DNA from: a virus | Taxonomy: Duplodnaviria; Caudoviricetes | IMG/VR virus record: IMGVR_UViG_3300042935_001404 | Reading direction: 5' to 3' (one strand) | Length of the DNA stretch: 64,000 nucleotides | Part shown: piece by piece, positions 1,943-56,965 of the stretch | Position numbering within the stretch: position 1 is the first letter of the stretch | Layout of the letters: every line of letters starts with the position of its first letter | The notes under the pieces: generated by a model | What the model was told of the DNA's origin: nothing | Database searches by the model: none | Seen by the model: only the letters and a program-made list of their open reading frames with translations | Made by a program: the position numbers and the translations under genes

Positions 1943-3169
1943 TCACAAGTACACCCAGTGAGGTTCAAGTATGGTCCACCACTCGGGAAAAGTCTTACTA
2001 AAACTTTGATCCCGCAATTGATCTAGTTTTGTGGTAGCACGGCAAAACTTGGGCCACTCAACGTCGCAACCGGGAATGGTCTTTGATAGGAAACTTTTGA
2101 TCTTTTGATCTTTTATACTATTGATTAACAGAGTCTTAACCGGGACAGGCAGGTGCCTAATATCATATTCAGGTGTGGTCACAATGTTTATGTTCACCGC
2201 AATGCCAAGGATTCGGTTAATGCTTTCCACAATTTGATCCACATAAAATACATTGAGTGGGGTTATGGTCAATGAAATTCTAACAGTAACATTGCTATGT
2301 GGTCGGAACAATTCCACAAATCTTTTTGTATTTGCAATAGTCGACTCAAAATCACCTTTGTGCCTGATGTATTCAAATTGCTCCGATTGCATGCTATCTA
2401 TGCTGATGTTAAATCCCACCTGCTTGTAGTGTGTCAGTATTTTAACGTATTGCTCGTTGAGAATTGACGCATTGGTATGGAGATTCAAGGCCACATTCTT
2501 TGCCACGTCAGTGGTGACACCATGCTCTAGTACATCAAACATGGCCGGAACCAAGAAGGGCTCGCCACCGTAGATGTCGATGTATTCAAAATTTCCAATC
2601 CATTCTTTTAATGTGGGCCAAAATTCTTCATTGTTGCGACCAAAACTGTTGCGTATGGTTTCAAATGTCCGAGTGTATTCATTAAAAGTCAACGTGGTAG
2701 CCTGCCCAGTTTGATCTTCACTGTACCAACTGCTACTGCCAAGATCCGATTTTTCTAATTCATGACCATCACTGTACCAACTGCTACTGGTCATGGGGTT
2801 ACACATTCTGCAGGCAAAGTTACAGGTGTTGCCGGGTTTGATCACCAACACACGAGGTTGTGTTTTTATTGCTTCCAAGTGACCAAACTTTCGGTTGTAT
2901 TCCATTCTTGCCGATGTCCTACCAACGTCTTCTAAATCCCAACACGTCTGGCAACTGGCATGACGGATGCCGTGGTCCAGTGCCGTGGCAATCAATTTGC
3001 GGGTGTAACTTTTGAAGGCTGTTTTTAAAGGATGACTGTAAACACGTATAACTTCGTGGGAGTTATCTTTCCAACTTTCCTTGTTGAGATTACAACAACA
3101 ATAATCTGCGTTGTTTTGCAACGCCATACCCATGTGAGTCATTACGCAATAAGTGTTTGATTTTTCCAT
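1943..3169 (-). CDS. Radical SAM protein with N-terminal Cys-rich (SPASM/twitch-like) region
   Basis: GNTCNFACRMC (CxxxCxxC), YGGEPF, N-terminal CC...CQTC. Confidence 0.9.
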   Translation of the reverse strand: MEKSNTYCVMTHMGMALQNNADYCCCNLNKESWKDNSHEVIRVYSHPLKTAFKSYTRKLIATALDHGIRHASCQTCWDLEDVGRTSARMEYNRKFGHLEAIKTQPRVLVIKPGNTCNFACRMCNPMTSSSWYSDGHELEKSDLGSSSWYSEDQTGQATTLTFNEYTRTFETIRNSFGRNNEEFWPTLKEWIGNFEYIDIYGGEPFLVPAMFDVLEHGVTTDVAKNVALNLHTNASILNEQYVKILTHYKQVGFNISIDSMQSEQFEYIRHKGDFESTIANTKRFVELFRPHSNVTVRISLTITPLNVFYVDQIVESINRILGIAVNINIVTTPEYDIRHLPVPVKTLLINSIKDQKIKSFLSKTIPGCDVEWPKFCRATTKLDQLRDQSFSKTFPEWWTILEPHWVYL

Positions 3170-3184
3170 GCAGTATTTAACGAG

Positions 3185-3206
3185 AAACCACCCGGTGGGG
3201 TGGTTT
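3185..3206. terminator. Intrinsic terminator hairpin upstream of radical SAM gene
   Basis: AAACCACCC / GGTG / GGGTGGTTT. Confidence 0.65.
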
Positions 3207-3245
3207 TATACTAAACCTTTAGTGTGTCGACAATCACCACGGAAC

Positions 3246-3278
3246 CGGTGACTTTTGTCATTATACAGGATTATTTCG
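3246..3278. repeat. 33-bp direct repeat, copy 2
   Basis: CGGTGACTTTTGTCATTATACAGGATTATTTCG; overlaps stop of 3271..3477. Confidence 0.9.
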
Positions 3279-3477
3279 GCATGCTGTTTATAAAAGCATT
3301 CATCATGGCAATGGCCTGTTTCACAGCATCCTCGGTCGACGGCTGTTGAACGCACCCGGCTTTGACACCCTGCACTTGCCATTCTTTGGCAGAGGTTTGG
3401 CAGGCCTGTTGTGTTGCGAATGTCCCAACCGGAGCAGGTGCGGTGTTGATTGCAGTGACCAATAGTAATGTCCACAT
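3271..3477 (-). CDS. Small exported protein with two Cys
   Basis: MWTLLLV hydrophobic start, GTFATQQAC...AGCV; coupled to upstream gene. Confidence 0.6.
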   Translation of the reverse strand: MWTLLLVTAINTAPAPVGTFATQQACQTSAKEWQVQGVKAGCVQQPSTEDAVKQAIAMMNAFINSMPK

Positions 3478-3830
3478 TATGCTGTTTCCTTGATGTGCTT
3501 ACATGCGCCACGATATTTGTGCCCGGGACAGGAGCACGTGACCTGACCATTCAGTTCTGTCACAGTGTATTCAGCACCTTTTGACCCTGCTACAGTCCAT
3601 GAGCGGCCTTCGGGTTCTGCCGCTTGGCCCGGCTCATATCCCCAGGAATTCGGCACTTCCCGAAACTTGCGGCCACGTGTGTAAAAACTGATTGGGTGGG
3701 CAAACTGTTTGATTCGAACAGAACCGTGTTGCAAGTATGCAAACATCTTGTCGCGGCTGTCGTTTAAAAAGTACACATGATTGGGGCTGTCCGTGTTACC
3801 CCAATCTGTAGTTTCCTGCAGAACTTTCAT
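3477..3830 (-). CDS. SWIM zinc-finger protein
   Basis: YTVTE...CSCPGHKYRGACKH (CxC-x7-CxH); start MKVLQ at 3830 overlaps upstream stop (ATGA). Confidence 0.8.
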   Translation of the reverse strand: MKVLQETTDWGNTDSPNHVYFLNDSRDKMFAYLQHGSVRIKQFAHPISFYTRGRKFREVPNSWGYEPGQAAEPEGRSWTVAGSKGAEYTVTELNGQVTCSCPGHKYRGACKHIKETA

Positions 3831-4369: not shown

Positions 4370-4735
4370 TTACGCAAAATATCTGTAGGGCAAGCCCAGG
4401 GTCCAAGCAAGGTAGTCTTCATCACCGTTTGTGTCTTCGGCTTCGTGGATCCAACGCATGGCCATTTCTAAATCTTTGGCACCCAGTGTCAGCATCTCTG
4501 CTACACGACGTTCAAAAGCTTCGGTGGCCTGAGCTTCGGCTGTTTTGCGTTCTTGTTCTGCCGAATCAATTGCTACACCGAGTCCTTCAAACTCTGCATC
4601 AAACTGCTCAAGAGTCCAGGTACTGGTATCAATACCACGGGGACGGAAACCGTAGGCATCCTTGTACATGTCCCAGTAGGTGGCCTGCGCCTGTTCCAAC
4701 TGTGTCAACTCTTCCCAACTTTTAAACTGTTCCAT
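4370..4735 (-). CDS. Early hypothetical protein (YWDMYKDAYGFRPR motif)
   Basis: ORF track; AAGGAG RBS and sigma70 promoter at 4766-4794 place the start at MEQFK. Confidence 0.7.
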   Translation of the reverse strand: MEQFKSWEELTQLEQAQATYWDMYKDAYGFRPRGIDTSTWTLEQFDAEFEGLGVAIDSAEQERKTAEAQATEAFERRVAEMLTLGAKDLEMAMRWIHEAEDTNGDEDYLAWTLGLPYRYFA

Positions 4736-4765
4736 TTCCGTCTCCTTATTTCTTACTATGTTCAT

Positions 4766-4794
4766 ATTATAGCAAATCGGCAATTTCGAGTCAA
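4766..4794 (-). promoter_or_regulatory. Early sigma70-type promoter
   Basis: TTGACT-17-TATAAT. Confidence 0.85.
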
Positions 4795-5066
4795 CCAAAT
4801 TCGTACATGTGTTGAGCCATTGCGGGATCCAATTTAATCAAATCCTTTGCGGCCGCAGTCAACTCACGATAGCGACGGTTGACCACTGCACGAGGCAGTT
4901 CACCATCACAGCTCAAGTTTTCGGGGCTCAAGTCCGAATCAATCATGCCTGCCACACGCAGACGGCCTGCGGCAGTGGTAACTTCGTACAGGGCTTCTGT
5001 GCGTTGGCCGCGGAACAGGGCTTGGTATTTGTTCTTGTTGTCAATGTAGGTTTGCAGTGCTTTCAT
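4791..5066 (-). CDS. Early hypothetical protein
   Basis: ORF with AGGAG RBS and own promoter. Confidence 0.7.
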   Translation of the reverse strand: MKALQTYIDNKNKYQALFRGQRTEALYEVTTAAGRLRVAGMIDSDLSPENLSCDGELPRAVVNRRYRELTAAAKDLIKLDPAMAQHMYEFG

Positions 5067-5097
5067 TTACGACTCCTTTTTTGTTAAACTATGCTAT

Positions 5098-5126
5098 ATT
5101 ATAGCAAATGGGGAATTTTTGGTCAA
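5098..5126 (-). promoter_or_regulatory. Early sigma70-type promoter
   Basis: TTGACC-17-TATAAT. Confidence 0.85.
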
Positions 5127-5142
5127 ATGCCAAGTGTTGCGT

Positions 5143-5481
5143 TTACGCAACACCACGTACATCAGTGTTAAGGTTGGGCTTCATAGTACGGATCAAATCA
5201 CGTTCAAAATTGTGTGCTTCTGTTTTGCCACGCACCACAGCCACAACACGAACAGTGAATGAATCAGTACCACGTTCACGCATGGTCTCATAAAGCATCC
5301 ATGATTTGTCTTCCGAGCGCATGCGGTACATGTGCTTGTTGCAACGAACCAACACGCTCTTCTTCACAGTGCTCATTGTCTTGGCAGTGACGCCAATGTA
5401 GAAGTCTGTGCCGCTTTCAATCATGTAAATGATGTGAGTACGGTCGGTGCGTTTTTTACGTGATTGCTTTTTTAAGTTCAT
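5143..5481 (-). CDS. Stand-alone GIY-YIG endonuclease domain protein
   Basis: HIIYMI...FYIGVT...R..H...E...I...PNLN. Confidence 0.8.
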   Translation of the reverse strand: MNLKKQSRKKRTDRTHIIYMIESGTDFYIGVTAKTMSTVKKSVLVRCNKHMYRMRSEDKSWMLYETMRERGTDSFTVRVVAVVRGKTEAHNFERDLIRTMKPNLNTDVRGVA

Positions 5482-5486
5482 AGTGT

Positions 5487-5515
5487 ATTATAGCAAATCG
5501 GGAATTTTGGGTCAA
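5487..5515 (-). promoter_or_regulatory. Early sigma70-type promoter
   Basis: TTGACC-17-TATAAT, 5 nt from the ATG. Confidence 0.85.
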
Positions 5516-5628
5516 CTGGTATTTTGTGGTAAAAACGCCACAAAAAAAGGTAATACTTGAGTATTACCCGGGGATTATCGATAATATTATTGGTTATTTT
5601 TAATGATTATCTGTCATATTATATTTCT

Positions 5629-6051
5629 TTATTGATAAATCCAACCTAAATTTAGTGTATTGTGCATCCATGTAAACACAGGCACAGAAAACTCCAATTG
5701 ATAAACACCGTTCCACCCCAAGTAACCTTGCCCAGTCAATGGAGATGCTTTATTAGGGTAGTGTGGGGGATAATCGGGATAGTATATTCCTGCCCATATA
5801 AACTTCGGATCCGTTATTCCAAAGAAACCGATTTCTTTAACAATCACCGCAGTAGAAATATCGTTGTCATCTTTTTTAAAGTGTTCAACTTTTAAACAAC
5901 ACTGGCCTGTTTTTGCAACAAAATCAAAATCAAAATCAGTTGTTTCTGTTAACTGTTGGATTCTTCCCCGGCCATCTACATCTACCTCAACCCAGGGCTC
6001 ACCCACAGGTTCAAGTGTCACACGCATTGTTACCGGGTACTCAGTAGCCAT
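5629..6051 (-). CDS. Hypothetical protein coupled to radical SAM gene
   Basis: 140-aa ORF overlapping stop of 6041..7393. Confidence 0.7.
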   Translation of the reverse strand: MATEYPVTMRVTLEPVGEPWVEVDVDGRGRIQQLTETTDFDFDFVAKTGQCCLKVEHFKKDDNDISTAVIVKEIGFFGITDPKFIWAGIYYPDYPPHYPNKASPLTGQGYLGWNGVYQLEFSVPVFTWMHNTLNLGWIYQ

Positions 6052-7393
6052 GCAGATCCAATATATCAGTTAATTCTGGGTACAATGATCTAGCATCGTA
6101 ACCGTATAGATTGTCCCAACGTCGGCACCAGGCAACCATGTCCTTTAAATGCTGTTCACTATTGGGCAACTGATCCTGTGTCAAAATGTTTAAGCATTGA
6201 TCAATCTGACTTAAAATTGTGCGCGGCAATTGGTTGATGTCGCTTTCGTTATAGTCCACAGTATAGTCGTTGGTTAAGTTGTATTCGTGTATTAAGTTTT
6301 TATAATTGTCAATGTACAGATGCCGCACAGCCAATGGCAATATCATTGGATTTAAAAAAATTGGATTTGTTACATTTAAATTTTTTACATTTATTTTATT
6401 GTCAAGGCAGTAACGCAACAAGGTATGATAAGAGCCAATGGTCAATGTACTGATAGCCGGTCTGGCTGTCACAGTTATATTTGATCTGTTGCAATGTGCA
6501 AGATATTGTTGTATATTTTTCAGTACCAACTGAGTATCAGTGCCCTGTCTCTGGTACGAGTTATGTTCGGTAATAGTTTCAATGCTTACTTCAATTCCCA
6601 CACGGTTAAATTTCTTTAACTTGTTGATCAAACTTTCATTGAATATGGTTCCGTTTGATACAAAACTAAAGTTTAAATCCGTGCGGCCATGTAGAATCAT
6701 ATGGTCAACAAACTCTTCAAATCTTGGTGTTAATAATGTCTCGCCGCCCATGAAATGAACATTATTGAGATCTTTTATATTGACCAGTTCGTTGAGCACA
6801 CGAGTCCATACTGCTTTGTCACGAGTCCAGTCTGTTCCTACATATTGCTGTGCATTTGCATTTCCCCATTTAACTTCTTGCGCGGCAATAGTGCTACTGG
6901 CTTGAGGATGGCACATCTTACAAGCCAGGTTGCAATAGTTTCCCAAGTCAATGTGTAAGTCTATGGGCATTCCATCATAATCACCGTTGTTATTTTTACT
7001 AGATTCAAATTTATCGTAGCCAGGACTTTGCTCGTAACTGTTGGAGAAATTTGTTTTGGTAAAAATAACGCTCTTTTGATTGCATTTATGTCTGCGACTG
7101 GTGCCACTGATTCCTTGCTGATAGTAACAACGACTACAAAAACTGACTGGTGAATCACTAAACATTGCCAGTCGAGCTTGCCGCATAGGTTCACTGTTAA
7201 ACCATTCAGCAATGGTCATTTGAGAGACGTTATAAGTTTTGCCTAAATTGTCCGGGTACAGTTTGTGTGATTCTTGGCAACAAAAACCTAGACTACCATC
7301 CCAGTAGATCTGTAGTTCATACCAGGGACTAGTGCAAAAAATATTTTTATTAGGCACGTTTTTCAATAATTTTATCAGCAAGTCCAAAATCAA
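6041..7393 (-). CDS. Radical SAM/SPASM-twitch protein (true start may be GTG at 7357)
   Basis: CTSPW...CC...CSRC; [11 protein letters not shown]; MGGETL. Confidence 0.9.
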
Positions 7394-8011: not shown

Positions 8012-8040
8012 AGTATAACACATAAAGTGATTGTATGCAA
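8012..8040 (-). promoter_or_regulatory. sigma70-type promoter for clpP1
   Basis: TTGCAT-17-TATACT, overlapping start of the divergent gene. Confidence 0.55.
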
Positions 8041-8694
8041 GATATTAAGTTTGAAATTTTTCCAGAAGACTATGCCTATTCCCGGGTTCAGACAACTTTT
8101 CCGTGGAGCCGAACAGAGTTAATAGCAGACTTTGAACAGGAGGATTGGAAACCATACGGAGCCGAAACTGCTGTTAAACACGACGCTTGGACTGGCAAAC
8201 GGTTTAAAGTGCATCGTCCCCGAAGCTCTAAGTTGCAACAAATTTCTCAATTCTTCAGGCAGGATTCTGTAAAAGATTACGTCATTGAATGCCTGTATCG
8301 AGACAAACCTATCTTACAAATAAACTGGCAAATGTATCCTTGGCGCATGAGCACCAATACTGTGTTACATGCAGAATTTACAAAAGATTTGCCAGGCTTT
8401 GAAAACGGTATTCACTGCGACATGCGACGACTAGTAGGAACTGGTATGATATATCTGGCCGAGGGTGACGATCCAGCCTCAGCCAGTTGCTTTTATGATC
8501 ATCCAGATCGTCACAACCCTCGTCGTGTCACCACCGGCTACGGCGCAGGGTGGGTACACAGCAACGATTGGAATACCTGGCACGATGGTTGGAATCGCAC
8601 TGACAAAACACGCTATAGTATCTTGTTGGCTCTTACTTTGAAACTGGAGAATCAACCACAAGCAACTGATCAAGCGGTGCAAACCACGGTGTAA
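8035..8694 (+). CDS. Putative 2OG-Fe(II) oxygenase
   Basis: HxD (IHCD), later WHDG and R-x-S (RYSIL) typical of the DSBH fold. Confidence 0.65.
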   Translation: MQDIKFEIFPEDYAYSRVQTTFPWSRTELIADFEQEDWKPYGAETAVKHDAWTGKRFKVHRPRSSKLQQISQFFRQDSVKDYVIECLYRDKPILQINWQMYPWRMSTNTVLHAEFTKDLPGFENGIHCDMRRLVGTGMIYLAEGDDPASASCFYDHPDRHNPRRVTTGYGAGWVHSNDWNTWHDGWNRTDKTRYSILLALTLKLENQPQATDQAVQTTV

Positions 8695-9907
8695 TTAGTT
8701 CTGCAAATTCAGGCACGGCTGTTTCAAAAGTTTGTCCACGGCTACGATCAAGGCCGCGAGTGTAACGATGAAATTCCCGGAAGTGATGCTGTTGTCCTTC
8801 CATTGGTGTATTCAAAAAGTTCAACACAATTTCACAATGGTCTTTCCAGTAGCGTTGATGCCACGGCCCAATATCATCCCCTGTCACATACTTTGACAAT
8901 TTATCAGTAATTGCGATTTTAACAGCATCGGGCAAACTTTTCACACACAGCTGATATGGTAAGTGCAACATGTTAAAGTTAGTGCCCAGCCCTTTCTTTG
9001 CAAAGAAATCAAATATCTCATCCAGATAATACACATTCAAACTGTTGACAGTGATACACACGCTAAATTGAAAGTTTTTGTTTGTGCGTTGTGCCTGTAG
9101 GAATCGTTCAAGATTGGCGGAAACCAGATCCCAGGTACTAGAATAGCGAACATATCCACACCTATCTTCAATGTCATCAATGCTGAGATCAAAATAAACT
9201 CGTTTAAATTGCTTTAACAAATTTTCTAACTCATCATTCCAGACAGTGCCATTGGTGCTAAAATGTAGGTCTATGTTTTTTGCAGTGCCTTGATCCACAG
9301 CAGCCTGTAGCACGTCAAAGTTCTTTTTGATCAGCATGGGCTCTGCACCGTAGTAGTCAATGTACACTGCATTAGGCACCCACTTGCTCATGGTGTTCCA
9401 GAGGTCTTGATTGTTGTCGCTGTAACTGGCAGGAATTCTGCGCCAGCGTTTGAGATACTCTGGGTAAGAAACGCCTTCTGCGGGCTGTGCTGCCAATTCC
9501 CAATCTTCACGATACCATTGACTGGACACTTCTGGGTTACAGGTTCTGCATTTCATGTTGCAGGTGTTGCCCATTTTTAGGTCCAGTATTTGCGGTTGAT
9601 CATCACGGTCAGTCACTGGATGATTCATGCTGTTGTGCCACTGTCTGCGTGACTTTTTGCCGGCGTGTTCATCGTCCCAGCAGGCCTGACAACTGGCATG
9701 CTCTTGATTGTTTTCCAACGATTCTTGTATTTCTCTGCGTGTAGGGCTTGTCCATGCTTGTTCTAACGTGTGGGTGTCTAGATATATCTGCTCACCCTGT
9801 GCATCTTCCAGGTATTTTCTACTGTGACAGCACAGATATGTTCTTCCAGAATTGTGCAGGCCCAGGCCTTTGTCGGCTAAAATACAGTATAAATTACTTT
9901 GTTTCAT
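8633..9907 (-). CDS. Radical SAM/SPASM-twitch protein
   Basis: YLCCH...CQAC; GNTCNMKCRTC; YGAEPM. Confidence 0.9.
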   Translation of the reverse strand: MKQSNLYCILADKGLGLHNSGRTYLCCHSRKYLEDAQGEQIYLDTHTLEQAWTSPTRREIQESLENNQEHASCQACWDDEHAGKKSRRQWHNSMNHPVTDRDDQPQILDLKMGNTCNMKCRTCNPEVSSQWYREDWELAAQPAEGVSYPEYLKRWRRIPASYSDNNQDLWNTMSKWVPNAVYIDYYGAEPMLIKKNFDVLQAAVDQGTAKNIDLHFSTNGTVWNDELENLLKQFKRVYFDLSIDDIEDRCGYVRYSSTWDLVSANLERFLQAQRTNKNFQFSVCITVNSLNVYYLDEIFDFFAKKGLGTNFNMLHLPYQLCVKSLPDAVKIAITDKLSKYVTGDDIGPWHQRYWKDHCEIVLNFLNTPMEGQQHHFREFHRYTRGLDRSRGQTFETAVPEFAELITPWFAPLDQLLVVDSPVSK

Positions 9908-9948
9908 ATATTGATTTATGATAAGTAAACAACAACGGAAAAAGAATC

Positions 9949-11535
9949 ATGCGTGACCTACTTAATTTACTTGACAATGTATTAACTGAAGAAAATCTAG
10001 CGGCTAAGGAAATACCCTCTAGAAAAATGTCTGCATTTATAGATCCCAAAACTAAAAAACAATTGAACCGTTCAGAGTTATTCTTGTGGAAAGTTAAAAA
10101 TGCATCACCTTTTGAACTGGTAGGTGGAGGAACAGTTACCATTAATCCCAAAGAGGCACAAAAAATTGCAACTTGGCTTGCTACCGGTCCTTCTGGTACT
10201 ATAGCAATGGCCACGTCAGATGGCGGTACAGTAAAAAATACTCAACTACAAAAAACTGTAGAATTTGGCAGCAAGGAAGCAGAGAACATCAAAATCAAAC
10301 CCAGTGATATTTTTCAAACAGATGAAAAAACTGAAATTGCTGATTTAGGCAACAATATTGATGCACTATTACAGGCTGGCGGATTTCCAGCATCAGAGAT
10401 GTATGACAAAATTGCCAATAATCCTGCTCTAGTAAAAATGGGAAAAATAGGAGATGCAGTAATTTACATGGCCAATCAGGCCAACAACGGTCAAGTGCCG
10501 ACATTCCCAAACAATCTCAATCAAGATCAAATCAAAGCAATTGAACTGTATGCCAGTGAATATCTTGGTGCGCTAGGACTGGTCACTGGTGGAGTACCAT
10601 TCATGCGTGGATCTCGAGAAGAGTTTGAAGGATTCGTGGGCGGTGATCTCAAAGACATGATTATGTTTTTCCCCAAAGCATCAAACAATCCCTTGGCCGA
10701 CAGTTTTAGTGTAGTTAATGACGAAACTGGTCATGCTGTTAAAATTTCTAGCAAAGCTGCCGGCAAAGGAGCACCCCCGAGCCTAGGCAGTATGAAATTC
10801 CCAGATGATATTAAGAAAAAATATCCGGAGGCTACACAATTTTTGAATAAAGCACAAGATGCATCTTTAAGTGCATTCACTCAACCATTTGCGTTGATGA
10901 ACTATCTGTACGAAATCAACCCTAACAAAATTCCCAAAGCATATCGCGGGTTAATGCCATTTACCCCAGCATTGGTCAGCCAACTTGAAAACAACATGAA
11001 AGGTGGCAAACCTATACCACGATCTATCATGAAACAGTTTGAAAAACAACTAAATCCCAAAGTTCGTGATGGCTCAGCCACTGACGGTGGCAAAGCATGG
11101 TATGCTGTGATTCAAGACATGATGCGAGCAGTTAACGCCGATCGTGCTGTGCCGGAACTACGTGCCGCATTGATTGAAAGTTTAGGTTACAACTTTGTTC
11201 AGTTATATACCAATGCCAAAGGTAACAAATTAGTAACACAAGCGTTTTGGCCTGCAAAAATTTCCGGGCAAGTTAAACTTAAATCTAAGGGATCTGCTGG
11301 AGAACTCAAAGGCAAAATGAGTGTGGAAATATCTCCCGGTGGCGAAGACTTGTACGATCCTTATAATCTTGACGACACACGTGGTGATCTTGGTGGCGTG
11401 ACCTACACTGACGACACTGAAAAACTAGATGATATTGAAAATCAACGTTCCGGAGTCACTGCGGCAGCCGGCGGCATAGAAAAAACTAAACAATTAGGAA
11501 ACGATAAAACGCTGGGACGCAAGCGCCAGCGTTAA
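9949..11535 (+). CDS. Putative PD-(D/E)xK nuclease-like protein, possibly virion-packaged
   Basis: E-YLG...NPLADS...KISSK motif; N-terminus MRDLLNLLDNVLTEE; ATAAGTA late-like motif upstream. Confidence 0.5.
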   Translation: MRDLLNLLDNVLTEENLAAKEIPSRKMSAFIDPKTKKQLNRSELFLWKVKNASPFELVGGGTVTINPKEAQKIATWLATGPSGTIAMATSDGGTVKNTQLQKTVEFGSKEAENIKIKPSDIFQTDEKTEIADLGNNIDALLQAGGFPASEMYDKIANNPALVKMGKIGDAVIYMANQANNGQVPTFPNNLNQDQIKAIELYASEYLGALGLVTGGVPFMRGSREEFEGFVGGDLKDMIMFFPKASNNPLADSFSVVNDETGHAVKISSKAAGKGAPPSLGSMKFPDDIKKKYPEATQFLNKAQDASLSAFTQPFALMNYLYEINPNKIPKAYRGLMPFTPALVSQLENNMKGGKPIPRSIMKQFEKQLNPKVRDGSATDGGKAWYAVIQDMMRAVNADRAVPELRAALIESLGYNFVQLYTNAKGNKLVTQAFWPAKISGQVKLKSKGSAGELKGKMSVEISPGGEDLYDPYNLDDTRGDLGGVTYTDDTEKLDDIENQRSGVTAAAGGIEKTKQLGNDKTLGRKRQR

Positions 11536-14502: not shown

Positions 14503-16155
14503 ATGATTATTTTTACACCAACACGAGCAGACAATAGATCAAATCCGTATCTTTTTCATGTCACATCAGAAATTGGAAAACTTCACGGATTAAAATTTTT
14601 ACCCACAGTGACTTATCCAAATCAAGCATGGACGCAGAAGTCGGCCAAACGAGCCCTGGCTGATCCCAATTCTGTGATTGAATTTAAAGACTGGGCACAC
14701 ATTGATTTTTTTAAGCACAGCAAACGAAAAAAAATAATATTTTTAGATCAATTTTTTATACACAACTACTACAAAAGAGATGTTGGCGGCGTTCATGCAT
14801 TAAATCCAGACCAATACTTTCCAAGACCACGTGATCATGCACCCAGCCCGGCAATTGATCGTTATCCCGATCGGATTGACTACAGCTGGGCCGATCTGAT
14901 AATTTGTGTACAAGAAGAAAATCTATCAGGACCTGAATGGCTTGAGTTTTTCAACAATCCTGGAGCCTATTTTCACACCGACTCGGACCGTGTGATATCC
15001 ATAGTGTCTGGCCTAAACTCTGACCTGTCATATCAAAATGTCTTTCCTCCCAACGTGTTACGTGTGCCGCTGAATTTCTGGTGTGCGTGGGTCACAGCCT
15101 GCAATACACCTGTAGAATACAATGCTGACTATGACAGACCTTACAAATTTGAAGCCTTGTTGGGCGGGTCAAAAGAAAATAGACAATTTGTTTTTCACAA
15201 GCTGAAAAAACACAATCTGCTAGAGCACGGTCTGATCAGTATCAGTGCTCAGACATTCAGATCTCCTACTGACCGCCGTTATCACGATGATTTTTATCGC
15301 AGTCCGGATCTAGATAAGTATGACAACAAAGAAATGTTGGTCCTGCGAAAGGATAGTCGTAAAGGCAATTGGATAGCACACACCACTGGCGCCGCAAGAA
15401 TTTATAACTTTCCACTGGGCAACGAAAAATCTACAACGCATGTTGGTCCGTATGCAAGTTTTTTTATACCACATCGCGTTTACCAAGAATCGTGGTTCAG
15501 CATTGTGGCCGAAAGTATTGTTACAAACTGTGACTTTTATACAGAAAAAACTGCCAAAGCCCTGTTGGGTCGTAGAGTCTTTATTACATTTGGGCCACAG
15601 CACAGCCTGAAAGTGCTCAGAGACAATGGGTTTAAAACTTTTGGTGCGTGGATAGACGAAAGCTATGACGACGAGCCCGACGACGAAATTAGATGGGGTC
15701 TGGCTTTTGAACAGGTTGTTCGATTGATTAATCACCCCAGTTTAAAATCATTACATGTTCAAGCACAAGCAGTGCTTGAACATAATTATCAGTTGGTATC
15801 TGATCAACGATCAATGCTAAAACCCATTGACGACTTTATTCAATCGTTTTTAAATGGTACTGCGCCCAGCTGTGTTGGATCGGTGCCAATGAAACAAAAC
15901 TGGACTCCTGCACAACAGCTGGCAGCAACAAAAAAACATCATCCTGTTCAAATTGAACAGGATTCTCCCGGTGCGGCATTTGCACCCTACTCGCCGGAGA
16001 TACTGCAGGGAACTATTATACGTTCAAAAAATACCACTGTGGTGCAACCTATTGTTATTCAACCAACTCGACGGTTCAATGATCGTGCTATACTACAAGC
16101 TCTGGAGCAGGCACGAGCTGAAACAGCAAAAAAACGGCAAGGATTGGGCCGTTAA
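14503..16155 (+). CDS. Putative glycosyltransferase-like protein (GT10-like C-terminal motif)
   Basis: FSIVAES...FYTEKTAKALL...GFKTF..WIDESYD. Confidence 0.5.
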   Translation: MIIFTPTRADNRSNPYLFHVTSEIGKLHGLKFLPTVTYPNQAWTQKSAKRALADPNSVIEFKDWAHIDFFKHSKRKKIIFLDQFFIHNYYKRDVGGVHALNPDQYFPRPRDHAPSPAIDRYPDRIDYSWADLIICVQEENLSGPEWLEFFNNPGAYFHTDSDRVISIVSGLNSDLSYQNVFPPNVLRVPLNFWCAWVTACNTPVEYNADYDRPYKFEALLGGSKENRQFVFHKLKKHNLLEHGLISISAQTFRSPTDRRYHDDFYRSPDLDKYDNKEMLVLRKDSRKGNWIAHTTGAARIYNFPLGNEKSTTHVGPYASFFIPHRVYQESWFSIVAESIVTNCDFYTEKTAKALLGRRVFITFGPQHSLKVLRDNGFKTFGAWIDESYDDEPDDEIRWGLAFEQVVRLINHPSLKSLHVQAQAVLEHNYQLVSDQRSMLKPIDDFIQSFLNGTAPSCVGSVPMKQNWTPAQQLAATKKHHPVQIEQDSPGAAFAPYSPEILQGTIIRSKNTTVVQPIVIQPTRRFNDRAILQALEQARAETAKKRQGLGR

Positions 16156-16635: not shown

Positions 16636-17637
16636 TTACTTGATCTGTGTCCAAACACGTTCACGAATCTGTTTTGTCAGTGCATCTGGCAATGGTACAT
16701 AGTCCAAATCTACAGCATCTTTCTTGCCGTTCTTAAATGCCCAATCAAAGAACTTTAGCACTTCATCACTGGTAGCTTTGTTGGCAGGGTTCTTGTACAT
16801 GATGATGAAACTGGCTGAGCTTACTGGCCAAGCCGCAGGATTCTTTTGATCCACAATACTCAGGCCCATACCCGGAACACTGAACCAATCAGCACCATCT
16901 GCGGCAGCGGCAAATGTTAAGTCATCTGGACTGACATACCGGCCTGATTTATTTTGTAGTTGTAGGAATACCATGTTGTTCTTTTTAACATAAGCATACT
17001 CTACATAACCGATTGAACCTCGGATACGGTTCACATTGGCTGCAACACCTTCGTTGCCTTTGCCACCTACCGAGTTTGCCGCTGGCCATTTAACTGCGGC
17101 ACCGCGACCCACACGCTGGAGCCACTCAGGACTAACAGTAGCAAGATAGTCTGTCCAGTTGAATGTTGTTCCTGATCCATCAGCACGGTGTACAATGGTG
17201 ATAGGCTGATCTGGTAATTGTTTGCCTGGATTCAATGCTACAAGGCGAGGATCATTCCATTTAGAGATGTTGCCCATGAATACATCTGCCATAACAGGGC
17301 CAGTAATGCGTAGTTCACCTGGCTTAATGCCATCCAAGTTAACAACAGGAACTGTGCCGCCAATGATGGCAGGGAATTGAACTTGAGCATTCTTATCTAA
17401 GTTCTCCCCGCTTACCGGAGCATCGGTTGCACCAAAGTCTACAGTCTTTGCGTTGATTTGTCTAATGCCACCTGAACTACCAATACTCTGATAGTTTAAG
17501 CTGACCCCTGTGGCTTTCTTATATCCTTCGGCCCATTTAGAATAGATAGGCATTGGAAATGTAGCACCAGCACCTGTAATGTCTGCGTGTGCTGATACGG
17601 TTACCGCGGCTAATAAAATTGCTAATAGTTTGTTCAC
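16636..17637 (-). CDS. pstS: Phosphate ABC transporter substrate-binding protein
   Basis: ITGAGATFP, YQSIGSSGG, DFGATD, HRADGSGTT, GKGNEG. Confidence 0.97.
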   Translation of the reverse strand: MNKLLAILLAAVTVSAHADITGAGATFPMPIYSKWAEGYKKATGVSLNYQSIGSSGGIRQINAKTVDFGATDAPVSGENLDKNAQVQFPAIIGGTVPVVNLDGIKPGELRITGPVMADVFMGNISKWNDPRLVALNPGKQLPDQPITIVHRADGSGTTFNWTDYLATVSPEWLQRVGRGAAVKWPAANSVGGKGNEGVAANVNRIRGSIGYVEYAYVKKNNMVFLQLQNKSGRYVSPDDLTFAAAADGADWFSVPGMGLSIVDQKNPAAWPVSSASFIIMYKNPANKATSDEVLKFFDWAFKNGKKDAVDLDYVPLPDALTKQIRERVWTQIK

Positions 17638-19562: not shown

Positions 19563-20854
19563 TCAACAGCCTTTAGTGTTTTCCATTTGTAGTTGCCCAG
19601 ACACACCCAGGCAAAGGCACCATTGGGCATAGGATCAGCATTGAACACAATGTCGCCCTTGGTTCCGGAATAGTTGGGAACTGTTGTTCCGTGTCCTATC
19701 ATGTACTGTGCCACACGCAATTTTTTAACAGCAGTTATGCCATCTGTTCCAATGGTCAGTTGAGGTAATTTATTAACACCAATGTTCAGTGCTTGGTCGC
19801 GACTGGTGCCAATGTAGGCTTCTTGATTTTTGTACTTGCCCGCAGATATACTAATTTCTTCGTCCCAGACATTCAGAGCAGAGTCTGGATGTTCTGTATT
19901 AATGCCCAGCCGCTTTTTAACCACCACGACAGTTTCGTTTAAACTGGTTTCGCCTTCGACTATTAGGTCTCGAAGGCGACCTACTTTTTGCAAGTTACTT
20001 TGTGTGATAGTTCGTGCCAACTGATTGCCAGCAACCAATGGGTGATCATCCACTGTGACATTGTCAAATTTAATACCGGTCTTTTTAATTTCTTCCGCGA
20101 CCTGCTCGACCAACCGATCTTTCCAGTCTTGATCCAGTTGTTTCAATGTCTTGGCACTTATGTCAGCTGCCAACACATTCCAACTTTGATTGTCTGTGTT
20201 GATAGATCCTGTGACTGCCAGGTCCTTGACTGTGACTGAATCTACAAACTTGGCAGCACGAGCAGTCAATGTGTTTTCAACCACTGTTGTTTCGTCTAAA
20301 ATTGTCAACTGGCAAGATGTAGCACGATCATCAATGCCTGTACTGGAAAAATTGTTTAACAATTCAATTTTTAATTTGGCCATATTTTCATCTACACGCT
20401 GATGAATAACAGTATTGATATCAATCGACCCAATGGTTGCTACTGTGCGGTGCACTACCATTTGATTAAGCGTTTTTTCAATCTTTTCTAACCATACCAC
20501 GTCCGTGAACAATTCTGTAACTGCGATTCGTGTGATACGATCTACTTCTTGGTCAACAGTGGTCTTAATGAGATTGTTGTTGACAAACTGTGCAACGCCA
20601 GGAACTGTGCCTGCGGCAAATAACTCAGCAACCGTGGTTTTAACAGCTTCAAGGATTTCAGGCATGGTTGTTGAGTTGGCAAATTTTGAAAGTATACGAT
20701 CTTGTGTGTACTTTAATATCTTATCTTCAAGGGGTTTGGACCACTCAGTTGATGTAAGCACTCCGTACACATGATCATTGACTGTTTCAGCAATTTGCTG
20801 TTCTATCATGCGTGTTATTACATCAGTATCAATCATGTTTTCTCCGTGTGTCAA
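19559..20854 (-). CDS. Probable virion fibre protein (coiled-coil N-terminus, fibre-like C-terminus)
   Basis: SNLQKVGRL, RLGINTEHP, GTKGDIVFN...AWVC fibre-type motifs. Confidence 0.55.
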   Translation of the reverse strand: MTHGENMIDTDVITRMIEQQIAETVNDHVYGVLTSTEWSKPLEDKILKYTQDRILSKFANSTTMPEILEAVKTTVAELFAAGTVPGVAQFVNNNLIKTTVDQEVDRITRIAVTELFTDVVWLEKIEKTLNQMVVHRTVATIGSIDINTVIHQRVDENMAKLKIELLNNFSSTGIDDRATSCQLTILDETTVVENTLTARAAKFVDSVTVKDLAVTGSINTDNQSWNVLAADISAKTLKQLDQDWKDRLVEQVAEEIKKTGIKFDNVTVDDHPLVAGNQLARTITQSNLQKVGRLRDLIVEGETSLNETVVVVKKRLGINTEHPDSALNVWDEEISISAGKYKNQEAYIGTSRDQALNIGVNKLPQLTIGTDGITAVKKLRVAQYMIGHGTTVPNYSGTKGDIVFNADPMPNGAFAWVCLGNYKWKTLKAVE

Positions 20855-23499: not shown

Positions 23500-23690
23500 A
23501 TTATGAGTATTCTTTCGGATAGATTGTGTTCTTATGTTCTTTATACAGAACAATTTTATTGATTGTGTATTAATTTATCGGCTTACAGTACCATGCCCAA
23601 AAAAAAGTAAACGAGTTTATCTATACCTACTGAATTTTATTGCTGTAGAGCAATAAATATTCGGATAATAATAACTATAAAGGTGATAGC

Positions 23691-30867: not shown

Positions 30868-30883
30868 TTTATATCCTTTATTA

Positions 30884-53048: not shown

Positions 53049-53768
53049 TTAACTATTTAGCATATAATACTGCTCTACTCGTTTCCACCAAAGACCGCAG
53101 TATTTTTCAAACTCGTTGCCCTCTAGTACAAATTCCTGGTATTCAGGTGTGGTAAGCACATTGCCCATGTCATCAGTTGTGGGTTTGACACACATTAAAA
53201 TAACACCTTTTTTAATCTTTGTTCCGTGCAGTTCGTTATGTGCTTCTGCATAGGCGCAAAGTTGTAAAAAGTAATCGTCGATCCATTCACGTTTTTTGGG
53301 CTTGTTGGTTTGTTTGTAGTCTATGATGGCTTCTTCGTTTAAGTGCAGGCCGGCAGCATCTGTTGTGCCTGCATACACCTTGGGAAAATATAGTGGAACT
53401 TCGTAGCCCCAAAACTCATTCACCCGATTGGTAATTCCTTCATTAATCACTGTTTCTGCCATGGCATGACTTGCCCACCCAAACGGGTTTGTACCACGGT
53501 CTTTTAGTTCGCCATTCTTGACATAGTGTTCCAGGTAGGTGTGCATACGTGTGCCGCGGTTAGCAGCCTCAGTGGTAATCTGTTGTGCCTTTTCGTAGCC
53601 AACACGTCGGCGCCATTGTTCAAGAATTAACTTTTTTTCTTCAGGCTTGGTTTTGTCAAGGATAGTCGTGACACTGGGTAACTTGTTGCCGTCAGGAGTG
53701 GCATAAAAACGTTTGCCATTTACTTCTACACGCGGCACCGGTGTGTAATTAAATTTTGGATTGTACAT
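53049..53768 (-). CDS. PD-(D/E)xK exonuclease (RecB/Cas4-like phage family)
   Basis: LPSVTTIL, GTRMH, AGTTD...IIDYKQT, QLCAYA. Confidence 0.88.
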   Translation of the reverse strand: MYNPKFNYTPVPRVEVNGKRFYATPDGNKLPSVTTILDKTKPEEKKLILEQWRRRVGYEKAQQITTEAANRGTRMHTYLEHYVKNGELKDRGTNPFGWASHAMAETVINEGITNRVNEFWGYEVPLYFPKVYAGTTDAAGLHLNEEAIIDYKQTNKPKKREWIDDYFLQLCAYAEAHNELHGTKIKKGVILMCVKPTTDDMGNVLTTPEYQEFVLEGNEFEKYCGLWWKRVEQYYMLNS

Positions 53769-55029
53769 GTTGCAAATGAGAGTTGTATATATGTTTATGG
53801 GCGTCTGACAGTTTGTCAAACAGTTTGGAATTTAGGGTGTAGCTATCAGTATCGGTGCGATTGTCGTAATCTGCGGTAAATTTTAAATATTCTGTAAATG
53901 TTGGTTCTGTGTTTCGTTTATTATTCATAACAGTGGACAACATTGACGTGAAATATCCTTTGAGTACATCGGTGCGTTTGTATTTTTTAAACACTGTGTG
54001 GTTTACGCATTGCTCTAACAGTTCAATCAGTTGCGGGTAGTATTGCAATGATAAACTTTCTACCATCAATGGCTCAGGATTATACAAGTGTATGTTTGAC
54101 ATCCATAAATCTGTTTGTGTTTGATCTGCCCAGCGTTCCCACCAATCAAGATAATCTGTTGCATAAAAAATATTGTTCAATGAAAATACAGGACTAACCG
54201 ACAACGAAAATTTTCCTGGATATTGTTGACTCAACGAATTGAATGTTTTTAAGTTGTCTTCAATTTTGTTAAATTTAGCAGGCCATCTCACATAATGATA
54301 ATTTTCCCCAACGCTGTCGATGCTTGAAAGAAATTCTATGCGTTTGAACAATGCAAATTTTTCAGAAAATTTTTCAGATATGCTAGGCACAAGACTGGTA
54401 GTAATACGCAGTGTAGTTGTCCCTGCTAAGTTTTCTGCAATCAACCAATCAACTAATTTTAAAAATCCAGGTTGCACCATTGTTTCGCCACCAATTGGAT
54501 GTACAATGAAGTTATCAGTTTCGTTATGTTTGCAAAGAATCATGTCAACTAGTGCATTCCAATGGTTCTCGTTTGTTGAAATATCAATTTCGTATTCAGT
54601 CTCAGCCGGGCGACCCATCAGCTTGGACCATAAACTGCTGTCAGTTTCGTTGCAACTGCGACAGGCTAAATTACATAAATTGCTGAATTTCATTCCAACT
54701 TGGAATTCAGTTGTTTTTCTGGACTGCTTAAACTGTTCTAGTTCGTCGGCCGAGTAACCCAGCATGTATTTTACACGTTCTGACTGTGCTTGATTTTGTT
54801 CATCGTGTGTGCATCGCCAGCAATGCTCTGACACAATGTTCTTTGACATGTCTTGCTTGACATTTTCTATAAAACTAAAATCCAGATCTTTATTTGTTTT
54901 AGATATGTCTAAATTACAACAAGTTGTAACTTTAAATTTGTCAAATTGAAATCTGAAATCGTATGCAGAATAAGGTGCTGTGCAAAATTCAGGATTATTT
55001 TTAATCCATTGAATTGTTTGTGAGGTCAT
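53749..55029 (-). CDS. Radical SAM/SPASM-twitch protein
   Basis: CTAPY...TCC...CWRC; SNLCNLACRSC; IGGETM; ATGA overlap with iscA. Confidence 0.9.
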   Translation of the reverse strand: MTSQTIQWIKNNPEFCTAPYSAYDFRFQFDKFKVTTCCNLDISKTNKDLDFSFIENVKQDMSKNIVSEHCWRCTHDEQNQAQSERVKYMLGYSADELEQFKQSRKTTEFQVGMKFSNLCNLACRSCNETDSSLWSKLMGRPAETEYEIDISTNENHWNALVDMILCKHNETDNFIVHPIGGETMVQPGFLKLVDWLIAENLAGTTTLRITTSLVPSISEKFSEKFALFKRIEFLSSIDSVGENYHYVRWPAKFNKIEDNLKTFNSLSQQYPGKFSLSVSPVFSLNNIFYATDYLDWWERWADQTQTDLWMSNIHLYNPEPLMVESLSLQYYPQLIELLEQCVNHTVFKKYKRTDVLKGYFTSMLSTVMNNKRNTEPTFTEYLKFTADYDNRTDTDSYTLNSKLFDKLSDAHKHIYNSHLQHVQSKI

Positions 55030-55346
55030 ATTCTGAATGATTCTCCACAGCCACAACGATCACGCTCATTTGGATTGCGAAATTCAAACCCTTCATTGAG
55101 TCCTTGTCGAACATAGTCAACTGTGATGCCTTGCAAATACGCACCAGATTTAGGATCTACAAATACTCGACAGTTGGCACAGTCAAAACACTGATCCTCG
55201 GGTTGTGGATTGTCTACATATTCTAACACATAGGCAAGTCCAGAGCAACCAGTGGTTCTGACTCCAAGTCTGATTCCTTCACCGTGTCCACGGCGAGTTA
55301 ATGTTTGTTGAATTTTTCGAGCGGCAGCATCAGTTAACGAGATCAT
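55026..55346 (-). CDS. iscA: Fe-S cluster assembly A-type carrier IscA
   Basis: TTGCSGLAY, NPNE...CGCGESF. Confidence 0.95.
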   Translation of the reverse strand: MISLTDAAARKIQQTLTRRGHGEGIRLGVRTTGCSGLAYVLEYVDNPQPEDQCFDCANCRVFVDPKSGAYLQGITVDYVRQGLNEGFEFRNPNERDRCGCGESFRI

Positions 55347-55722
55347 GCTTCTTACGATAGTCGTCTACAGCCGCTTTGATTGCGTCTTCGGCTAGAATGC
55401 TACAATGGATCTTCACGGGGGGTAAGGCCAATTCTTCAGCGATGTCGGAGTTTTTGATTGCTCCTGCTTGGTCGATGTGCATGCCTTTGACCCACTCGGT
55501 AATAAGGCTCGAGCTCGCAATAGCCGATCCGCAGCCATACGTTTTAAAACGTGCATCTGTAATAATACCTGTATCATTATCGACCTTTATTTGTAATTTC
55601 ATGACATCCCCGCAAGCAGGTGCGCCAACCATACCAGTGCCAATATCAGTATCAGTCTTGTCAAAAGATCCGACATTCCTGGGATTTTCATAGTGATCAA
55701 CTACCTTTTTGGAGTATGCCAT
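55330..55722 (-). CDS. iscU: Fe-S cluster scaffold IscU
   Basis: DHYENPRNVG, APACGDVM, YGCGSA, LPPVKIHC. Confidence 0.97.
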   Translation of the reverse strand: MAYSKKVVDHYENPRNVGSFDKTDTDIGTGMVGAPACGDVMKLQIKVDNDTGIITDARFKTYGCGSAIASSSLITEWVKGMHIDQAGAIKNSDIAEELALPPVKIHCSILAEDAIKAAVDDYRKKHDLVN

Positions 55723-55728
55723 GTGTGT

Positions 55729-55932
55729 TTACTCTGGTTTAATGTTGGATGCCTGCAGGCCTTTTTGTCCTTGAACCACATCGTATGTCACACGTTGATT
55801 TTCCTTGAGGACTTTAAAGCCTTGCGTCTGAATTGCTGAATAGTGTGCAAACAATTCTTCGCCACCTTCGTCTGGAGTAATAAACCCAAAACCTTTGGTT
55901 TCATTAAACCACTTTACTTTACCTAATGCCAT
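55729..55932 (-). CDS. cspA: Cold-shock domain protein
   Basis: [21 protein letters not shown]. Confidence 0.9.
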
Positions 55933-56041
55933 ATACTGCTACTACTTTCTGTTTTAATTTACTAATTTACAATTACTTTGTACACGTTCTTGTGTCTACC
56001 TACCTCAAATGTATTATACTACATTCTGTGTGTATTTACTA

Positions 56042-56965
56042 TCATTTTGGTTCTTTTATCCAGGACTTTTTACGATCACTGAAAGTAATTGGTTTGTATT
56101 CGTATGATTCTGGGCAGAACTTACATTGATCAATTTGATTGTCAATCGTGTCAATAAATTCTTTGCCCCGGATGTCAAATTCATCAATGGTCAACGGCTT
56201 ATAGCCGTGTAGCATAGCACGATCCTCATCGCTTATTTCAAAATGGTATTGATCATCAAATTCGGGCATTAATGCAGCCGGTCCGCATTTATAAATCTTA
56301 CCATTGATCATGTGATAATTTTTAAATCTGCGAAAAGTGCAGTTTTCGTGTGCCCGTGCAGGATCACTTTGATACAGTGTGTACTTGTTATCTGGCAGTT
56401 CAATGATATTGCTTTGAACAAACTTGTTGCTCATCCAGGCGTGAATTTTTAATTTTTTATCATTAATAAATTGATAATCGCTACCAATTGGATCATCCTT
56501 GTGTTGTGTTTCTATTACAGTGGGTCCCAAGAAGTTTCGTACACGAGCAAATATTTCTTCTCGGTCATTGGGATTGTGTATGCTAATGCCTAGCCAATTG
56601 CCTACCTTAGGATCAAGTGCTTCTTCAAGTCCTTTGACACAATCAATTCTAGTGCCGTTGCTTTGGACTTGGGTTCCTGAATGATTGGGCCATAGTTTAT
56701 TAACGCCAGTGATCCACTTGACAATGTCAGGATTAAGCAGTGGTTCGCCGCCAAGGATTACAGGATGTCGTATATCTATTTTTTCTGCCCAGCGTGTGAG
56801 AACAGGTTCGGCTTCTGCCCAACTTTGCCAACCGCTGAATTTATAATTGTTATATCGGTTACAACCATTGCAGGTTAGGTTACACACGTTGGTGATGTAG
56901 AATTCTAACTTGTCAATCAAGATTTTTTGTGTCATGTAACGATATTTAATGCCATTAACTGGCAA
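56042..56965 (-). CDS. Radical SAM protein, second subfamily (C-terminal Cys cluster)
   Basis: ITNVCNLTCNGC, LGGEPLL, C...KCG...CKFC. Confidence 0.88.
   Translation of the reverse strand: MPVNGIKYRYMTQKILIDKLEFYITNVCNLTCNGCNRYNNYKFSGWQSWAEAEPVLTRWAEKIDIRHPVILGGEPLLNPDIVKWITGVNKLWPNHSGTQVQSNGTRIDCVKGLEEALDPKVGNWLGISIHNPNDREEIFARVRNFLGPTVIETQHKDDPIGSDYQFINDKKLKIHAWMSNKFVQSNIIELPDNKYTLYQSDPARAHENCTFRRFKNYHMINGKIYKCGPAALMPEFDDQYHFEISDEDRAMLHGYKPLTIDEFDIRGKEFIDTIDNQIDQCKFCPESYEYKPITFSDRKKSWIKEPK

Follow-up and report, generated by a model that had tools for sequence, protein, structure and literature searches.

What does a phage do with six radical S-adenosylmethionine (SAM) genes? The question is raised by a 64,000-nucleotide stretch of viral DNA (IMG/VR record IMGVR_UViG_3300042935_001404; Duplodnaviria, Caudoviricetes; the whole stretch is hereafter the window), in which an earlier note, made from the letters alone, had described five divergent radical SAM genes with a cysteine-rich N-terminus and one gene of a second type. 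We place the five in the catalogued family N_Twi_rSAM (NF033640, 'twitch domain-containing radical SAM protein'), show that the cassettes carrying two of them are gained, lost and replaced between near-identical phages, and find beside one of them a conserved partner with a predicted carbohydrate-binding fold. On balance, we hold it to be about an even call that N_Twi genes encode two-cluster radical enzymes tailoring a variable sugar or aminosugar structure. The six genes, and a small ORF (open reading frame) coupled to one of them, are as follows.

1943-3169, minus strand: rSAM1, N_Twi_rSAM member forming a single-gene cassette; NF033640 232.6 bits over the full length
6041-7357, minus strand: rSAM2, N_Twi_rSAM member; NF033640 241.8 bits; its start overlaps the ClpP1 stop
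8633-9907, minus strand: rSAM3, N_Twi_rSAM member; NF033640 292.4 bits; the conserved core copy
28268-29383, minus strand: rSAM4, N_Twi_rSAM member; NF033640 223.0 bits; its start is coupled (TAATG) to the 120-aa ORF
29385-29747, minus strand: 120-aa ORF upstream of rSAM4
53749-55029, minus strand: rSAM5, the most divergent N_Twi_rSAM member; NF033640 171.6 bits; its ATG overlaps the iscA stop (ATGA)
56042-56935, minus strand: rSAM6, second type, with a radical SAM core and a C-terminal twitch-like cysteine motif; PF04055 42.8 bits

All six ORFs are present where the earlier note had located them, and all are intact, with complete cluster motifs. Scored against the NF033640 hidden Markov model (HMM), whose curated cut-off is 170 bits, five copies pass over model positions ~1-397/398, rSAM5 barely; rSAM6, at 19.9 bits, is not a member, and PF04055 is its sole family match. 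Four of the six score above the PF04055 cut-off, rSAM3 falls just under it (28.2 versus 29.5) and rSAM5 has no Pfam match. Matches to I-set, TcdB_N and Fer4_12 in these proteins did not reach the respective Pfam cut-offs, and we took them for chance. For four genes the listed start lies upstream of the likely one and in frame with it; the likely starts are 7357, 29383, 55029 and 56935, the first being a GTG within the ClpP1 stop. Overlaps with neighbours, which the earlier note had also reported, were borne out by shared stop and start codons with ClpP1, the 120-aa ORF and iscA; rSAM2 is translationally coupled to ClpP1.

Among the real genes of the window, CX3CX2C occurs in these six only, and all six have it unchanged, together with the GGE motif for SAM binding. 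Over their whole length the five N_Twi copies share 18-33% identity, and the residues invariant in their five-way alignment (C8, C26, C27, C73 and C76 at the N-terminus, and S86, R88, N114, C116, N117, C120, C123, S128, S129, G187, E189, R254 and D387) match the shared motifs that had first drawn attention to them. At the N-terminus of rSAM2, rSAM3 and rSAM4 the cysteines form the twitch/SPASM signature CX9-15GX4C followed by CxxC (here CX12-13GX4C); rSAM1 and rSAM5 keep the N-terminal cysteines and have lost the glycine of GX4C. The SPASM profile PF13186 matches the N-terminus of rSAM2 above its cut-off (32.8 bits, residues 20-90 of the ORF as listed from 7393) and that of rSAM3 just under it (20.4 versus 21.5). 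In rSAM6, C-X12-G-X4-C lies at ORF residue 209 and is followed by CxxC at the C-terminus, just where extra cysteines had been described, so that the two types carry the same auxiliary module at opposite ends. Judged by this pattern, the five N-terminal cysteines should hold a second [4Fe-4S] cluster.

BtrN is the prototype of the twitch module. In an AlphaFold2 model of rSAM3 (predicted local distance difference test, pLDDT, 94.7; predicted template modelling score, pTM, 0.90), an N-terminal beta-hairpin and helices bearing the five cysteines come first, then the radical SAM barrel and a helical C-terminal region; the predicted N-terminal secondary structure, read without coordinates, is consistent with a beta-hairpin-plus-helix twitch module. 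The best matches among solved structures span the core only (model residues ~97-369, with ~210-230 residues aligned), where anSME (4k36), SkfB (6efn), CteB (5wgg), viperin, BlsE (7vob) and MoaA (1tv7) are tied at Z 10.9-11.6; the whole-chain TM-score from Foldseek is ~0.33. Matches of the family profile to PDB sequences were weak, those to SkfB (1.5e-8) and CteB (5e-7) being the best. Because no known enzyme stands out in structure, no reaction can be transferred to the N_Twi enzymes: the predicted fold bears out the class of enzyme and the permuted order of domains and points to no substrate. Our literature searches found no paper on the family name or on N-terminal twitch/SPASM domains and no characterised member, so that membership gives an architecture, not a reaction.

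The earlier note had proposed a modification toolkit acting on virion glycans, structural proteins, micro-peptides or DNA; a toolkit fits the evidence, and of the four candidates a glycan or sugar is favoured because rSAM2 has a CBM60-like partner and because a StrB1-type amidinotransferase, a carbamoyltransferase, an aminotransferase and a UDP-sugar dehydrogenase-like protein co-occur with the family. The members of this context that lie in the window are listed here.

5629-6051, minus strand: partner of rSAM2, 140 aa, with a predicted CBM60-like beta-sandwich fold
20829-21746, minus strand: StrB1-type amidinotransferase, matching inosamine-phosphate amidinotransferase (PDB 1bwd) over its full length at E 4.6e-111
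21743-22258, minus strand: small cupin-like protein, weakly Asp/Asn-hydroxylase-like
22255-23553, minus strand: UDP-glucose/GDP-mannose dehydrogenase family protein (Pfam PF00984, PF03721)

The partner matched no Pfam or PHROG family. Its AlphaFold2 model, built from 48 sequences (pLDDT 87.8), was compared with 48,161 PDB representatives by VIA-align, and 2xhh came first at Z 11.0 (root-mean-square deviation 3.0 Å over 111 of 119 residues), the next match having Z 4.8. Foldseek also put 2xhh (E 8.5e-5) and 2xfd, a vCBM60 with cellobiose (E 1.8e-4), at the top, with target-normalised TM-scores of 0.63-0.70. On these models, the non-enzyme half of the rSAM2 module would be a sugar-binding fold. 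Homologs of the partner fall into 389 clusters, many of them 60-89% identical. In 170 sources its profile found seven genes, carried by the window, four close relatives, a Flavobacterium metagenome-assembled genome (MAG) and a Pacearchaeota MAG; each of the seven adjoins or overlaps a family member, and enzyme and partner therefore constitute a conserved two-gene module.

The amidinotransferase family is present in 15 sources (the window and 14 fetched loci), and six of its 16 homologs lie at most 200 bp from an N_Twi member; the dehydrogenase family (cluster 17) has relatives in 11 viral loci with N_Twi arrays. Across 80 viral loci, recurrent neighbours are carbamoyltransferase, aminotransferase, Asp/Asn-hydroxylase-type cupins, nitroreductase, DUF6071 and two further radical SAM types. 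In the window, a lectin-like Laminin_G_3 gene adjoins rSAM1 and is preceded by a repeat-rich ORF (18-797) whose sequence reads as fibre-like, and a pectate-lyase-like gene lies two genes downstream of rSAM5.

How stable this set is between phages was visible in a group of close relatives, fetched loci that we number with the prefix L. The closest, L159, comprises the end of contig Ga0209296_1000007 (346,856 bp), and the genes flanking the slots described below are 93-99% identical in protein sequence between it and the window. Relative to L159, positions 1946-3250 (rSAM1 and its leader, 1.3 kb) are a clean insertion: L159 16714-16744 aligns to both edges, and one copy of the repeat that bounds the cassette is kept there.

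1907-1945, no strand assigned: direct repeat, downstream copy, 39 nt, flanking the rSAM1 cassette
3243-3281, no strand assigned: direct repeat, upstream copy, 39 nt, flanking the rSAM1 cassette

The two copies are 90% identical, and their 19-nt core occurs at these two sites only in the window (0.04 expected by chance). Each contains a TATAAT box, by which the repeat resembles an early promoter, and after each comes a G+C-rich hairpin with a T-run. The second slot, 5622-7348, comprises exactly rSAM2 and the 140-aa ORF. In L159 a homologous pair with only 26% and 24% identity takes its place, and nucleotide identity to L159 is ~90% right up to both edges; L161, L162 and L166 carry a third pair there (37% and 35% identity), inverted, and L160, L163 and L167 have the slot without a family member. 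For two of the five copies, rSAM1 and rSAM2, cassettes are thus gained, lost and replaced between near-identical phages, and rSAM3 and rSAM6 are conserved while those slots vary.

Three further features of this region deserve mention. Just past the rSAM2 module, a 33-nt minus-strand repeat of the form TTGACC-17-TATAAT, with a conserved spacer, occurs three times (4765-4797, 5097-5129 and 5486-5518), each copy just upstream of a small ORF (4370-4798, 4791-5066 and 5143-5481, respectively); these are putative early promoter cassettes of PeSL-like type, a promoter/stem-loop arrangement to which we return below. A third fast-swapping slot within these 12 kb is 9949-11535, where the 528-aa protein and its counterpart by position in L159 share only 31% identity, between genes that are 96-99% identical. 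Finally, L159 lacks PstS (16636-17637) and the preceding 550-aa ORF (14503-16155) at the equivalent position, so that close relatives differ in the presence of these genes as well.

The conserved copy, rSAM3, has orthologs at 68-96% identity in ten loci, all from one metagenome scan, from which the ratio of nonsynonymous to synonymous substitution (dN/dS, Nei-Gojobori) was computed for rSAM3 and the genes next to it. Four comparisons had unsaturated dS, and in these rSAM3 gave 0.05-0.08; the two ClpP genes gave 0.02-0.05 in the two closest comparisons (L159 and L160). Values this low indicate strong purifying selection, and rSAM3 is therefore no passenger copy. The gene that overlaps it convergently is constrained too:

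8035-8694, plus strand: 219-aa protein convergent with and overlapping rSAM3; possible 2-oxoglutarate (2OG)-Fe(II) oxygenase

It is kept beside rSAM3 in all eight relatives that reach this point (72-95% identity), with dN/dS 0.03-0.06. As to the 2OG oxygenases that had been placed beside the radical SAM genes, the support is weak: this protein has an HxD...H motif and, in the atlas, a lead (0.94) to 2OG-FeII_Oxy_3/4 clusters, but there was no Pfam match and a profile search against PDB found nothing, and the matches of the cupin-like 21743-22258 are weak (Asp_Arg_Hydrox E 0.096; a PDB beta-hydroxylase E 0.012). One rSAM3 ortholog, L167:3603-5351, is lengthened in frame by ~160 aa, inserted after residue ~305, with internal repeats PDKLxFxDWL and W(I/V)EYANAVP and no intein-like ends; the 583-aa form with this insert (protein P0048) represents 32 member sequences.

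Beyond these relatives, N_Twi_rSAM is a large family. A profile of rSAM3 and 70 relatives searched against 1.84 billion proteins, found 6,615 representatives (50% identity clusters) at E <= 1e-30. Stretches matching the family number more than 586 in IMG/VR and at least 250 in GTDB species genomes. Bdellovibrionota supply 41 of the 78 cellular loci kept, and three of their genomes have 16, 12 and 13 matches (16, 11 and 13 over the curated cut-off); Halobacteriovorax marinus has seven, five of them over the cut-off, Poseidonocella sedimentorum two, and 14 control genomes none. Among cultured phages, matches were weak (~21% identity) and confined to KVP40-type Vibrio phages and Ralstonia phage RsoM2USA. 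An HMM built from the five window copies was run on 159 sources, the window and 158 fetched loci: 114 had two to seven full-length members within ~20 kb, and clustering gathered 547 members across 157 sources. Multi-copy arrays are thus the normal state of the family, and it is in carrying its copies singly that the window is unusual. Some 26 of the best 150 representatives (~17%) are double-length, at ~800 aa or more with two matched stretches (for example proteins P0361-P0368 and ~18 more; L054:3004-5553; L074:11603-14155). We read these as two complete N_Twi modules fused, which would suggest that paralogs act together.

The five window copies are not recent duplicates. In a FastTree phylogeny of 260 sequences they need five separate origins: rSAM1 and rSAM3 fall within one small viral clade, the nearest relative of rSAM1 being on viral contig L017 (49% identity), rSAM4 is placed next to Pseudobdellovibrionaceae sequences, on long branches, and rSAM2 and rSAM5 sit on long branches themselves. 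Viral and cellular labels are interleaved, with at least 26 forced changes. Single placements are unsure given the long branches, to which the non-monophyly of the five copies is robust. As the copies are not each other's nearest relatives, they represent separate lineages of a large, exchanged family rather than a local expansion, and the earlier note's term 'paralogs' is misleading.

The second type, rSAM6, has 1,835 homologs, of which the best 120 listed are 65-93% identical and lie on contigs of up to 320 kb. It is not the 332-aa radical SAM type common beside arrays elsewhere. Between rSAM6 and rSAM5, on one common strand, lie csp, iscU and iscA, names that we take from reading the sequences in the light of established knowledge.

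55026-55346, minus strand: presumed IscA-type Fe-S carrier, 106 aa, with a CGCGESF motif at its end
55330-55722, minus strand: presumed IscU Fe-S scaffold, with three cysteines and GAPACGD, GCGSAIAS and HCS motifs

T4-like marine viral genomes have been reported to combine a viral IscU and an A-type carrier with up to 12 radical SAM genes and ClpP (PMC5332604), and the link to Fe-S supply is in this sense already published.

Together, these observations suggest a scheme whose steps are drawn from established radical SAM chemistry. Each enzyme would bind two [4Fe-4S] clusters, cleave SAM reductively and abstract a hydrogen atom from its substrate, whereupon the auxiliary cluster would see the reaction through to an oxidation, epimerisation, dehydration or cross-link of a sugar-type substrate. 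Going by context, this might be a nucleotide-sugar, an aminosugar, an aminocyclitol-like unit or a finished glycan. The CBM60-like partner could hold or select the substrate and deliver it to rSAM2, or target rSAM2 to it, and the phage IscU and IscA could load the many clusters; the conserved rSAM3 and rSAM6 would carry out common steps and the cassette copies rSAM1 and rSAM2 strain-specific ones. The outcome is likely to be a strain-variable carbohydrate structure, which probably sits on the virion, because fibre-like, lectin-like and pectate-lyase-like genes are adjacent. Cluster binding, chemistry, sugar substrate and product location are all points that we infer. A bolder version, possible if doubtful, is that N_Twi enzymes use radical chemistry to edit directly a carbohydrate held by the CBM-like partner and that large panels of them, exchanged as cassettes, give the surface of the particle or cell a glycan 'serotype' particular to the strain, in phages and predatory Bdellovibrionota alike; if true, this would be a radical-chemistry counterpart of O-antigen diversification.

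Several observations weigh against a sugar substrate. The partner accompanies one of the five copies only, and its seven genes in 170 sources amount to five distinct variants (those of L161 and L162 are near-identical). Pfam and PHROGs detected no glycosyltransferase in any window ORF tested, and hence none of the 'GT-like genes' that the earlier note had seen beside the copies. Bacterial neighbours (n = 139) are mixed and offer no dominant partner family: 14 are radical SAM genes, five ABC transporters, about four glycosyltransferases, three GDSL hydrolases and two sulfotransferases. The closest solved sequences, at a weak level, are the peptide-modifying SkfB and CteB, which in structure are tied at Z ~11 with enzymes acting on sugars and nucleotides; and a shared fold does not show function.

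The alternative that survives best, albeit one we think unlikely, is that the genes encode protein or peptide maturases that cross-link, epimerise or oxidise a protein of phage or host, or else a small peptide, with the small proteins coupled to rSAM2 and rSAM4 as substrates or chaperones. Most SPASM/twitch enzymes are indeed protein or peptide modifiers, the best PDB sequence matches, SkfB and CteB, are sactipeptide synthases, and the rSAM2-type enzyme and its small protein co-vary as a unit. That small protein, however, is predicted to fold as a carbohydrate-binding module and is neither peptide-like nor like the recognition element (RRE) of ribosomally synthesised and post-translationally modified peptide (RiPP) pathways, and structural likeness to the peptide maturases is no greater than that to anSME, BlsE, MoaA or viperin. 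We saw neither an RRE/PqqD-like domain nor a leader-peptide protease nor any other RiPP marker, the five ABC-transporter neighbours being uninformative, and no conserved small ORF of the kind expected for SkfB/CteB-type RiPP systems lies beside the window copies. A conserved peptide does occur elsewhere, 0.6-7 kb from arrays in nine of 170 sources, a Haliscomenobacter MAG among them, but it is absent from the window and its close relatives. Its ORF has a variable N-terminal part and ends in ...KKL(K/E)ELRKRDPF(I/V)Y(K/R), and for some arrays it may encode a peptide substrate or the precursor of a cofactor:

L009, 7634-7759: RKRDPF ORF
L010, 18590-18760: RKRDPF ORF
L020, 12872-13018: RKRDPF ORF
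L023, 19182-19301: RKRDPF ORF
L025, 7667-7831: RKRDPF ORF
L052, 13048-13212: RKRDPF ORF
L053, 3-302: RKRDPF ORF
L071, 16139-16333: RKRDPF ORF
L082, 12396-12506: RKRDPF ORF

Less probable again is a role in counter-defence or host takeover, in which the enzymes would act on nucleotides, nucleic acids or a small molecule, for instance a diffusible aminoglycoside-like compound, and be swappable because host defences differ. Such a role would suit cassette turnover in repeat-bounded slots near repeated sigma-70-type promoters, which is typical of T4-type hyperplastic regions (PMC4122927, PMC2839356), and a PD-(D/E)XK-like gene follows rSAM5. Amidinotransferases, carbamoyltransferases, aminotransferases and radical SAM enzymes are also classes found in aminoglycoside pathways. 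Yet no DNA-modification genes are linked to the five copies (PADLOC was not searched), and the 12-16 copies in Bdellovibrionota chromosomes are not explained by an anti-defence role. Least of all do we credit the view that these are unselected host-derived passenger genes in decay, for which the earlier note had expected a characterised host family and dN/dS near 1: rSAM1 is dispensable in a close relative and rSAM5 is highly divergent, barely at the family cut-off, but no characterised family member was found, none of the six frames is broken or lacks a cluster motif, several copies are joined to their neighbours through coupled stop and start codons, conserved homologs of rSAM6 and of the rSAM2 partner number in the hundreds, and for rSAM3, with a dN/dS similar to that of ClpP, the view is largely refuted.

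If the sugar-tailoring reading is true, it would bring new radical carbohydrate chemistry and a new way for phages to vary their surface. The question extends beyond this window: the N_Twi family makes up a large share of the accessory genome in many aquatic jumbo phages and predatory bacteria, and the products of phage radical SAM arrays have been an open question since 2010. The module of rSAM2 and its CBM60-like partner is a minimal two-gene unit that could be expressed and assayed, and named carriers are at hand for genetics in KVP40-type Vibrio phages, Halobacteriovorax marinus and Poseidonocella sedimentorum KMM 9023.

In its remaining content the window, at ~43% G+C, looks like a section of a large T4-like phage genome. 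Its genes include those for two ClpP proteins, ClpX, GroEL, Hsp20, a class I ribonucleotide reductase, an ATP-dependent DNA ligase, UvdE, PstS, the UDP-sugar dehydrogenase-family protein and a DUF6267 protein, and megablast of 20 kb of the window against 50,697 phage records found no near-identical genome. A gene at 30562-30894 is presumably a ClpS-like adaptor, as read from its sequence, and with the two ClpP, ClpX, GroEL and Hsp20 would give the phage a near-complete protein-quality-control set. PHROGs and lenient Pfam scans of the large window ORFs and of 8035-8694, 5629-6051 and 29385-29747 were uninformative. The perfect T4-type late promoter TATAAATA has a single occurrence in the window, no more than expected by chance, and stands beside none of the six genes. 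TAAATA or TAAATC lies 4-5 nt before the ATG of rSAM1 (3170-3185) and rSAM3 (9908-9925), with no Shine-Dalgarno sequence; these genes could be expressed as leaderless transcripts from late-type promoters, or the resemblance could be coincidence.

Set beside known systems, part of this picture is familiar: NF033640 is catalogued, and phage radical SAM arrays and the viral link to Fe-S assembly have been published (Timms 2010, Nishimura 2017). New, as far as we could find, are the enzyme with its CBM60-like module, the precise gain and swapping of cassettes between near-identical phages, and the measurement of selection. An 'interchangeable module' of five radical SAM genes was described in Campylobacter phages CP220 and CPt10 (Timms 2010, PMC2853527); like these phages and the marine T4-like genomes, the latter with IscU, A-type carrier and ClpP as well, the window belongs to a phage with many radical SAM genes, but PMC2853527 and PMC5332604 name neither family, partner protein nor substrate, and tblastn with rSAM2 and rSAM3 found no match in the Campylobacter phages, whose enzymes are thus not detectably of the N_Twi family. 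PeSL cassettes occupy hyperplastic regions of T4-type phages (Arbiol 2010, PMC2839356; Comeau 2014, PMC4122927), and the rSAM1 cassette resembles them in being a single gene between short direct repeats, with TATAAT near a stem-loop, that is precisely absent in a close relative; it differs in that its repeat is limited to two copies in the 64 kb and has no sequence in common with the promoter repeats nearby. The predicted fold of the rSAM2 partner matches almost the whole of the calcium-dependent CBM60/CBM36 modules 2xhh and 2xfd, at 14-16% identity, although it is a free-standing, cytoplasmic-looking protein and not a domain of a secreted glycoside hydrolase. The N_Twi enzymes themselves share with the SPASM/twitch enzymes of solved structure the same radical SAM core and the same auxiliary signature, CX9-15GX4C...CxxC, and depart from them in its placement, the auxiliary domain preceding the core instead of following it.

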